From: Eledone cirrhosa
Lineage: Eukaryota
NCBI GenBank assembly: GCA_964016885.1
Contig: CAXHJY010001506.1
Location: forward strand, 1-41,634
Direction of reading: 5' to 3'
DNA: 41,634 bases
Shown here: in pieces, positions 27,465 to 28,000 of the stretch
Layout: every line of letters begins with the position of its first letter
Position numbering within the stretch: position 1 is the stretch's first letter
Translations under genes and position numbers: made by a program
Notes under the pieces: generated by a model
Told to the model about the DNA's origin: nothing
Seen by the model: only the letters and a program-made list of their open reading frames with translations
Databases searched by the model: none

Positions 27465-27510
27465 TTTTTCAGTTATAATATAAAGCGCTCAACAGTATTG
27501 GAGCAAGATA

Positions 27511-28000
27511 TATGCAAAGTTTTATTTAAATTGTTGGGTTAACAACGAGTAAATATTTATAACTGATATAAAAGCACTCAACAAGTATTTGGAGTATATT
27601 TACGATATTAAATAAATGGAAACTATATTTATAAAACCATATTTATTTCATTATATATATTTCAGGGATATCATATTAAAAATATGTTATGCCTTCTTCA
27701 GACAAAATACAATATAAACAGTCTTATAAATAGATAGATTCGACATACCTTTCAACATCGACTTCAATTTGAAAAGTTGAATTGGTAGTGGAAAAAATAT
27801 TAGGGACAGTTATAAAAAGAAAGAAAGAAAAAAAGAAAAAAGAAAAAACGGAGAAAAAGAAGAAATGCATGCAACTAAATAGAGAGAGATAGATATAGAG
27901 AGATAGATAGAGAGAAGAAATTCATGTAAAGAAACAGAGAGAGATATATAGAGAGAGGAAAAAACACAGAGGGAGATAGATAGAGAGAGAGAGAGAAGAC

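Follow-up and report, generated by a model that had tools for sequence, protein, structure and literature searches.

Penelope-like elements (PLEs) are the closest eukaryotic relatives of telomerase reverse transcriptase (RT), and both the choice of the site at which their cDNA starts and the origin of their inverted insertions with one-side-tailed ends are open questions (PMC8557442, PMC11167929). In the Hydra clade, as defined by Craig et al. 2021 (PMC8557442), RWK replaces GxKF/Y and DKG has become DKT. The two families from Eledone cirrhosa analysed here, A and B, have in common with the described Hydra-clade elements an RWK-like motif and DKT, a CxCX5C linker, an endonuclease with CxxC and CxH, a hammerhead close to the 3′ end, insertion into (TA)n, partial tandems and inverted arms, and also a hairpin that can be found in the published consensi, although no hairpin module is described in the sections and supplement parts of that paper covered here. 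They differ in size, the published units being generally under 3 kb with tails of 30-40 nt (PMC8557442), as against units of about 3.9 kb (B) and about 6.2 kb (A) with tails, from site S1 to site S2, of 91 nt (B) and 138 nt (A).

A second point of reference is Poseidon_Ac (PAc), whose RT, in vitro, initiates at two internal sites coinciding with the genomic ends and elongates both strands of the target (Frangieh et al. 2024, PMC11167929). PAc resembles A and B in having a tail delimited by two fixed starts downstream of the hammerhead, AT-rich targets, extension of both strands and a predicted dimer (PMC11167929), with the qualification that the starts of A and B are read from genomic ends, whereas those of PAc were mapped biochemically. 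In PAc, the starts are found within the ORF and belong to an AC-rich stem-loop described as non-homologous to the target (PMC11167929); those of A and B, in contrast, lie before the ATG in the 5′ UTR, adjoin a duplicated, sequence-conserved hairpin and show short UA/AU microhomology. The parts of PMC11167929 covered report nothing like the one-each rule set out below, and the PAc RNA fragment printed in its Fig. S1, which comes from another clade, lacks the hairpin motif by eye. Inverted pLTRs with a one-sided tail (Arkhipova et al. 2013, PMC3846280) show the same head-to-head arms with the tail on a single arm, but were explained by antisense self-priming, not counted and, in the parts covered, tied to no RNA element. 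The telomerase template boundary element and SL5 of DRT10, from a related RT clade, are likewise stem-loops set a fixed distance away from a short template, yet their position is 5′ of it and their effect is to stop copying (bioRxiv 10.1101/2025.10.16.682844), whereas the sense RNA here has the hairpin 3′ of the start. A stem-loop 5′ of the template, as in a telomerase-type boundary, would be found here only if the antisense strand were the template. The telomerase-style part of an earlier note on this DNA fits only loosely. In L1 twin priming, the second target strand primes a second cDNA, its primer annealing at variable internal sites, and the hepadnavirus epsilon is a bulged stem-loop that recruits the RT and templates protein priming from the bulge. 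The PLE module differs from both in that its two starts are fixed, lie outside the hairpin and are joined to target DNA.

The window, i.e., the whole stretch of DNA analysed, is an entire 41.6-kb contig of the 3.0-Gb genome and consists mostly of (TA)-rich arrays and three PLE insertions, all on the minus strand: B (about 28790-23579), A2 (from the window end to about 32258) and A1 (20900-15205). By their defining protein motifs, A and B are Hydra-clade PLEs. The single ORF, read from translations, encodes an RT followed by an endonuclease of the GIY-YIG type at the C terminus; it has 241 homologues at E<=1e-20, the closest named ones in Argonauta hians, and Pfam gave no match for any of three protein pieces. 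The RWK position reads RWRA in both families and the DKG position SDKT in B. The linker, CxxC and CxH are CNCRDRSKC, CDLC and CRH in B and CNCRNKANC, CRLC and CNH in A, while CCHH is absent from both, as the clade requires. Both insert into (TA)n and carry near the 3′ end a canonical hammerhead, a predicted ribozyme whose core and stems were read by eye and whose loop II is enlarged in A. In B, the ORF (25242..27464, minus strand) has one in-frame stop at 25782; upstream of it stands a pLTR (27515..28790, minus), a 5′-truncated tandem copy of the B 3′ end, with a type I hammerhead motif at 27644..27709 (minus; CUGAAGA core at 27701-27695, GAA at 27663, flanking stem I, by eye) that is absent from the best 150 of 559 Rfam matches. 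The B 3′ end itself (23579..23880, minus; 99.3% identity with 27536-27808) comprises hammerhead, S1 and hairpin 1 (23666-23644) and terminates at S2 in a (TA)-rich array. The A2 ORF (35815..38267, minus) is a frameshifted copy, and the A hammerhead motif (38621..38775, minus), recognised by eye and by folding, has an insert of ~100 nt in stem-loop II.

Judged by its protein matches, B is a young and abundant family: over the first 155 residues, every one of 150 scored matches shows 94-100% identity, and many lie in open frames 738-761 aa long; the protein searches of the Eledone cirrhosa genome returned matches from B subfamilies only. At C7:78452867-78463066, three intact B ORFs stand head-to-tail with a period of 4011 nt, a candidate tandem source locus. 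The 3′ UTRs are very long, about 1.65 kb in B (23579-25242, minus) and 3.5 kb in A (32258-35815, minus), with microsatellite-like tracts inside the element. Next to the B 5′ end lies a GC-richer stretch (28799-29305, minus) that by eye looks like an RT fragment from another retrotransposon, and between A1 and the TA array a short element with a tRNA-like head by eye (20960-21140, minus), possibly a SINE. Degenerate multi-kilobase (TA)n arrays (21150-23578 and 1-15200) directly adjoin the B and A1 3′ ends, either as target or as product.

Each unit carries, between the hammerhead and the ATG, two copies of a hairpin with the consensus RCUC-stem-loop-stem-UY-GAGYNCU, in the order hammerhead, S1, hairpin 1, S2, hairpin 2, ATG. 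In B, both are compact. Reading along the minus strand, site S1, an insertion 3′ end (27596..27603), stands before hairpin 1 (27573..27595; ACUC/GAGU outer helix, 3-bp inner stem, UU bulge, GCU tail), which is followed by the 5′ strand of a linking helix, P3 (27557..27566). Site S2, the unit junction with the sequence AUAUAU (27505..27514), precedes hairpin 2 (27484..27504; GCUC/GAGC outer helix, 2-bp inner stem, UU bulge) and the 3′ strand of P3 (27469..27478). In A, on the same strand, both hairpins have long structured inserts: S1 (38553..38560), hairpin 1 (38469..38552; ACUC/GAGU, inner stem of 4+4 bp, long insert), P3 5′ core (38453..38458), S2, again the unit junction (38415..38423), hairpin 2 (38294..38414; GCUC/GAGC around a structured insert of about 105 nt) and P3 3′ core (38282..38287). 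The inserts of A, in hammerhead loop II (38621-38775) and in the hairpins (38469-38552 and 38294-38414), are TA/TG-rich and self-paired and leave the cores intact. Within hairpin 2, the segment 38377-38303 (minus) starts with GTATGT and ends with TTTAG, and could be a GT-AG intron of 73-75 nt in the 5′ UTR; if it were spliced, the 3′ strand of the inner stem would go.

Every string that the earlier note quoted stands at the coordinates given there. TTGCTCC does stand just after the junction in both units (27506-27500 in B, 38416-38410 in A), and GTTGAGCKCTTT at 27493-27482 and 38303-38292, 17 and 24 nt before the ATGs at 27464 and 38267. The two are not separate motifs, since GTTGAGC and TTGCTCC are the 3′ and 5′ strands of one bulged hairpin; the reading of A as carrying two separate motifs was accordingly rejected, both strings pairing around the insert of about 105 nt. 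In A this pairing was hidden from view because the long inserts split the hairpin strands. The second B copy at 27596-27575, repeated near 23650, was found as claimed, and the compensatory A-U/G-C swap in its outer helix exists, but the main covariation sits in the inner stem. TTGAGTTCTTC is present at 38477-38467, yet it is merely the 3′ half of a complete A hairpin 1 (38552-38469). The A1 inverted fragment does begin inside that hairpin, which looks incidental; a recurrent inversion point there was rejected, as 0/17 other A inverted arms start at this place.

The motif is not confined to this genome. Scanning metagenomes yielded 77 loci, which fall into 47 clusters; 48 of the loci have at least 90 nt before the ATG. 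Scored as GAGCACT with at most 1 mismatch in the 160 nt before the ATG, the hairpin heptamer occurs in 45/48 of these loci and in two copies in 38/48 (27/29 and 22/29 by cluster), with 83 sense against 14 antisense matches and 7.6 expected at the ORF rate. The earlier note had expected its motif to be missing from related families if its reading was wrong; we looked for it among these relatives and found it clade-wide. By eye, 5/6 published Hydra consensi (PMC8557442 File S7) have the hairpin as well, Hydra-1_Amil being the doubtful case. In the supplement of that paper, where line breaks may mask matches, five exact 9-mers gave 8 occurrences, 4 of them in Hydra UTRs and 4 dispersed over the much larger Naiad and Chlamys files. 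Furthermore, when a covariance model trained on nothing but 9 metagenome sequences is run on the window, its sole matches at E<=2 are the three B copies (E 3e-4 to 3e-3), and in 49.6 kb only these and two copies in a third family fall under E 0.01; the model misses the expanded hairpins of A. The hairpin motif in B is thus more than chance. Rfam 15, applied to 15 of the 77 metagenome loci at E<=1, returned 3 matches, none over the hairpin module. The literature searched holds no description of the module, the linking helix or a counted one-each rule (bioRxiv supplements and Repbase lay outside this scope). Within that literature the cis-element is new, within a known clade, whereas the one-sided tail was already known. 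The third family is old and has both hairpins about 680 nt apart (L061:5319-5353 and 4636-4671, minus); no ORF was found in this locus or in 29 related loci searched. Another family has a single hairpin before the ATG and a 3′ end downstream of it (L139:100-260 and 2595-2710, plus).

The inner stem covaries. Anchored on sequence only, it pairs over at least 3 bp in 25/49 cluster-level instances with the 2-nt bulge and in 0, 0, 0, 4 and 0 instances with bulges of 0, 1, 3, 4 and 5 nt; 7 of 82 motif anchors were dropped for want of a 5′ strand in range. Swapping partners yields a mean of 7.3 and a maximum of 16 in 5000 trials, against the 25 observed, and the composition of the first inner pair (15 CG, 9 UA and 1 UG of 25) is reached in 0/500 shuffles, although none of these figures is a P value because the shuffles ignore relatedness. 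Nine equal-length copies show double changes in three inner pairs; L113 was left out of the alignment labelled A2. The outer helix is nearly invariant and could be read as sequence.

The 10-bp inverted repeat of B (27469-27478 with 27557-27566), to which the earlier note had drawn attention, is weak when taken alone, arising in 17% of 500 shuffles, and becomes significant only across families. It is one case of a helix that joins the 3′ flanks of both hairpins; its sequence differs per family, and A has it too. Across 22 clusters, the duplex energy is -11.8 kcal/mol as against -6.3 +/- 0.6 kcal/mol for swapped partners, 10/22 clusters lie above the 95th percentile of their swaps, and the pairing excess is confined to registers 18-20 (0.36-0.37 vs 0.24-0.27). 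The linking helix is predicted to set the hairpins at opposite ends of one helix, giving a pseudo-twofold dumbbell. Neither kind of data decides which strand folds: counts of G-U and A-C stand at 2:1 in the inner stems and at 6:8 for the linking helix, and in 17/22 clusters it is the antisense module whose fold is the more stable, which is probably a composition effect.

Each hairpin copy adjoins an insertion 3′ end, with short UA/AU microhomology to (TA)n. In the metagenome contigs, 14/16 free 3′ ends lie 0-4 nt before a hairpin (18 rows less L127 and L133, dropped as self-alignment artefacts), where a TA/AT-aware null expects 3.0 of 16 (P about 1e-9; by cluster 10/12, P 2e-6). At B S1, 18/18 distinct loci among the matches listed (8512 forward-strand matches in all) end in (TA)n, and the direct end of full-length B loci is at S1 (17) or S2 (21) in 38/40. 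For A, S1 was predicted from hairpin 1 and then found in genomic ends, 97/98 distinct loci among the 100 matches listed ending 0-4 nt before the helix by eye; in a set of 29 A loci, 24/24 located free ends are at S1 (8) or S2 (16), and the A ends within the window at about 32258 and 20900 are at S2 as well. In the older third family, related copies (70-84% identical) end just before their own hairpin 1. Two ends stand apart: in the single-hairpin family the end lies 32 nt past the hairpin start, and in L099 it lies 12 nt before the helix in a strict alignment and 3 nt in another. Next to 56 B ends, TA runs cover 0-146 nt, and several metagenome ends are without a TA run. At L120:2600-2650 (plus), the 3′ end enters (ATTT)n, which matches the element's own S1 template AUUU and may reflect microhomology target choice or repeat synthesis.

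The earlier note missed that there are two equivalent sites and that one insertion uses both. In B, 24 loci have an inverted arm; both ends are resolved in 21, of which 20 are contiguous (L215, L217 and L237 were dropped for one unresolved end, L201 for a 1.8-kb gap between the arms). In 19/20, the two arms end at opposite hairpins, i.e., 11 with the inverted arm at S1 and the direct arm at S2 and 8 the reverse; L207 has both arms at S2, and none has both at S1. Counting L201, whose ends are opposite, gives 20/21 and a Fisher P of 3e-5. For A, 17 of 21 loci are resolved and contiguous (L253, L269, L287 and L295 dropped for one unresolved end), and all 17 have opposite ends (11 and 6; Fisher P 8e-5), so that the rule holds in 36/37 insertions overall, loci which were chosen for an intact junction and are thus young and long. 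Within the window, A1 obeys it, with a 5′-truncated direct arm ending at S1 (15205..20841, minus) and an inverted arm ending at S2 (20843..20900, plus). In B, the copies within one insertion differ by a median of 0.5% as compared to 5.8% between loci, and 37/84 rare variants recur inside the same insertion. Both arms of an inverted insertion derive from the same parent sequence. L224, which has no obvious inverted arm, contains by eye a very short inverted S2 piece.

Altogether, clade-wide occurrence, covariation and fixed ends with short microhomology support the notion that the element would position the RT, and to this extent the earlier note's proposal is supported. The twin-hairpin module marks two fixed insertion 3′ ends, and on the genomic record we think it rather likely to be a two-site start signal on the sense RNA for twin target-primed reverse transcription. 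In such a mechanism, the endonuclease would cut both strands of the (TA)n target, and each cut 3′ end would anneal to a stretch of UA/AU, 2-6 nt long, immediately 5′ of one hairpin. The RT, predicted to be held by each hairpin, would start about 6-8 nt 5′ of the helix, one cut end priming before hairpin 1 and the other before hairpin 2, with both cDNAs made from one RNA; the two truncated cDNAs would then be joined head to head, and the tail would be the S1-S2 interval. The signal lies 3′ of the start, so a cDNA begun there does not include it; only a tandem or circular template would give a full daughter, and this requirement would account for the pLTR. A tandem transcript or a hammerhead-derived circle was proposed as template in PMC4209133, and the genome contains B tandem arrays, such as that of period 4011 on C7. 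More tentatively, and with somewhat less than even confidence, we propose that the RNA dumbbell loads an RT-endonuclease dimer, each protomer having a fixed start of its own at which it primes one cut end, both on a single RNA that may be circular. The linking helix would give the module a pseudo-twofold shape suited to a protein dimer, and a dimer on the dumbbell would be the simplest reason for the strict opposite use of the sites.

The ends might instead be resolution cuts rather than RT starts, the hairpins acting as DNA, in cDNA or a single-stranded intermediate, and being recognised by an endonuclease that cuts at a nearby TA. Watson-Crick covariation is strandless, the GAGYRCTY tail is near-palindromic, the tail was ascribed to endonuclease-mediated resolution in PMC8557442, and cleavage by the D. 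virilis endonuclease required tail sequence (as cited in PMC11167929). We regard this as unlikely. Where template and (TA)n mismatch, the genome usually shows the TA letter, as at B S1 and at 10/13 S2 ends of a G-bearing B subfamily, which is what primer annealing predicts. From these letters, the first templated base would lie, at each of the four sites, some 6-8 nt ahead of the helix. Moreover, the PAc genomic ends are RT starts mapped in vitro (PMC11167929), and the A hairpins tolerate internal inserts of about 100 nt.

A further reading accepts both sites as RT starts but does without a dimer on the dumbbell: either one enzyme uses them in sequence, or they are used on two separate RNAs. 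The order of events and the number of protomers are not readable from the genomic record; however, two RNAs would allow each arm to choose its site independently, against the 36/37 opposite pairs counted above, and sequential use has no need for a linking helix in conserved register. We give this version a low probability.

That the template is instead an antisense RNA which self-primes, with the hairpins as telomerase-like stop elements and the ends as termination points, we hold to be quite improbable. Self-priming was proposed for head-to-head PLE palindromes (PMC3846280), the antisense strand places the hairpin 5′ of the template as in the telomerase boundary element and DRT10 SL5 (bioRxiv 10.1101/2025.10.16.682844), and antisense folds are no less stable; on the other hand, the hammerhead is on the sense strand and PAc works on sense RNA in vitro (PMC11167929). 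The geometry of the arms also speaks against it. S1 and S2 serve about equally often as the end of the long arm, and the two arms are truncated at points tens to thousands of bases apart; for these reasons a simple fold-back was rejected as the source of inverted arms.

A promoter or translation element, with nearby ends reflecting only TA-rich flanks, is very improbable: in the metagenome set, hairpin 2 does sit 14-49 nt ahead of the ATG, and the Penelope promoter was located in the pLTR (PMC8557442), but chance proximity puts 3 of 16 ends beside a hairpin where 14 are seen, the other TA sites in range go unused in 18/18 B and 97/98 A loci among the matches listed, and the one-each rule would be left unexplained. 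The hairpin may have an additional role in translation.

In summary, the motif is real, clade-wide and mechanistically informative. A compact, sequence-conserved cis-element, together with a counted rule and ready compensatory mutants, makes the choice of start in PLEs directly testable. The hairpin module is also a marker for the true boundaries and the non-autonomous partners of Hydra-clade elements, and it would offer a portable start signal if PLE proteins were to serve RNA-templated insertion. If our proposal is true, a programmed twin-priming integration signal would explain the tail, the inverted arms and the pLTR of these elements together.
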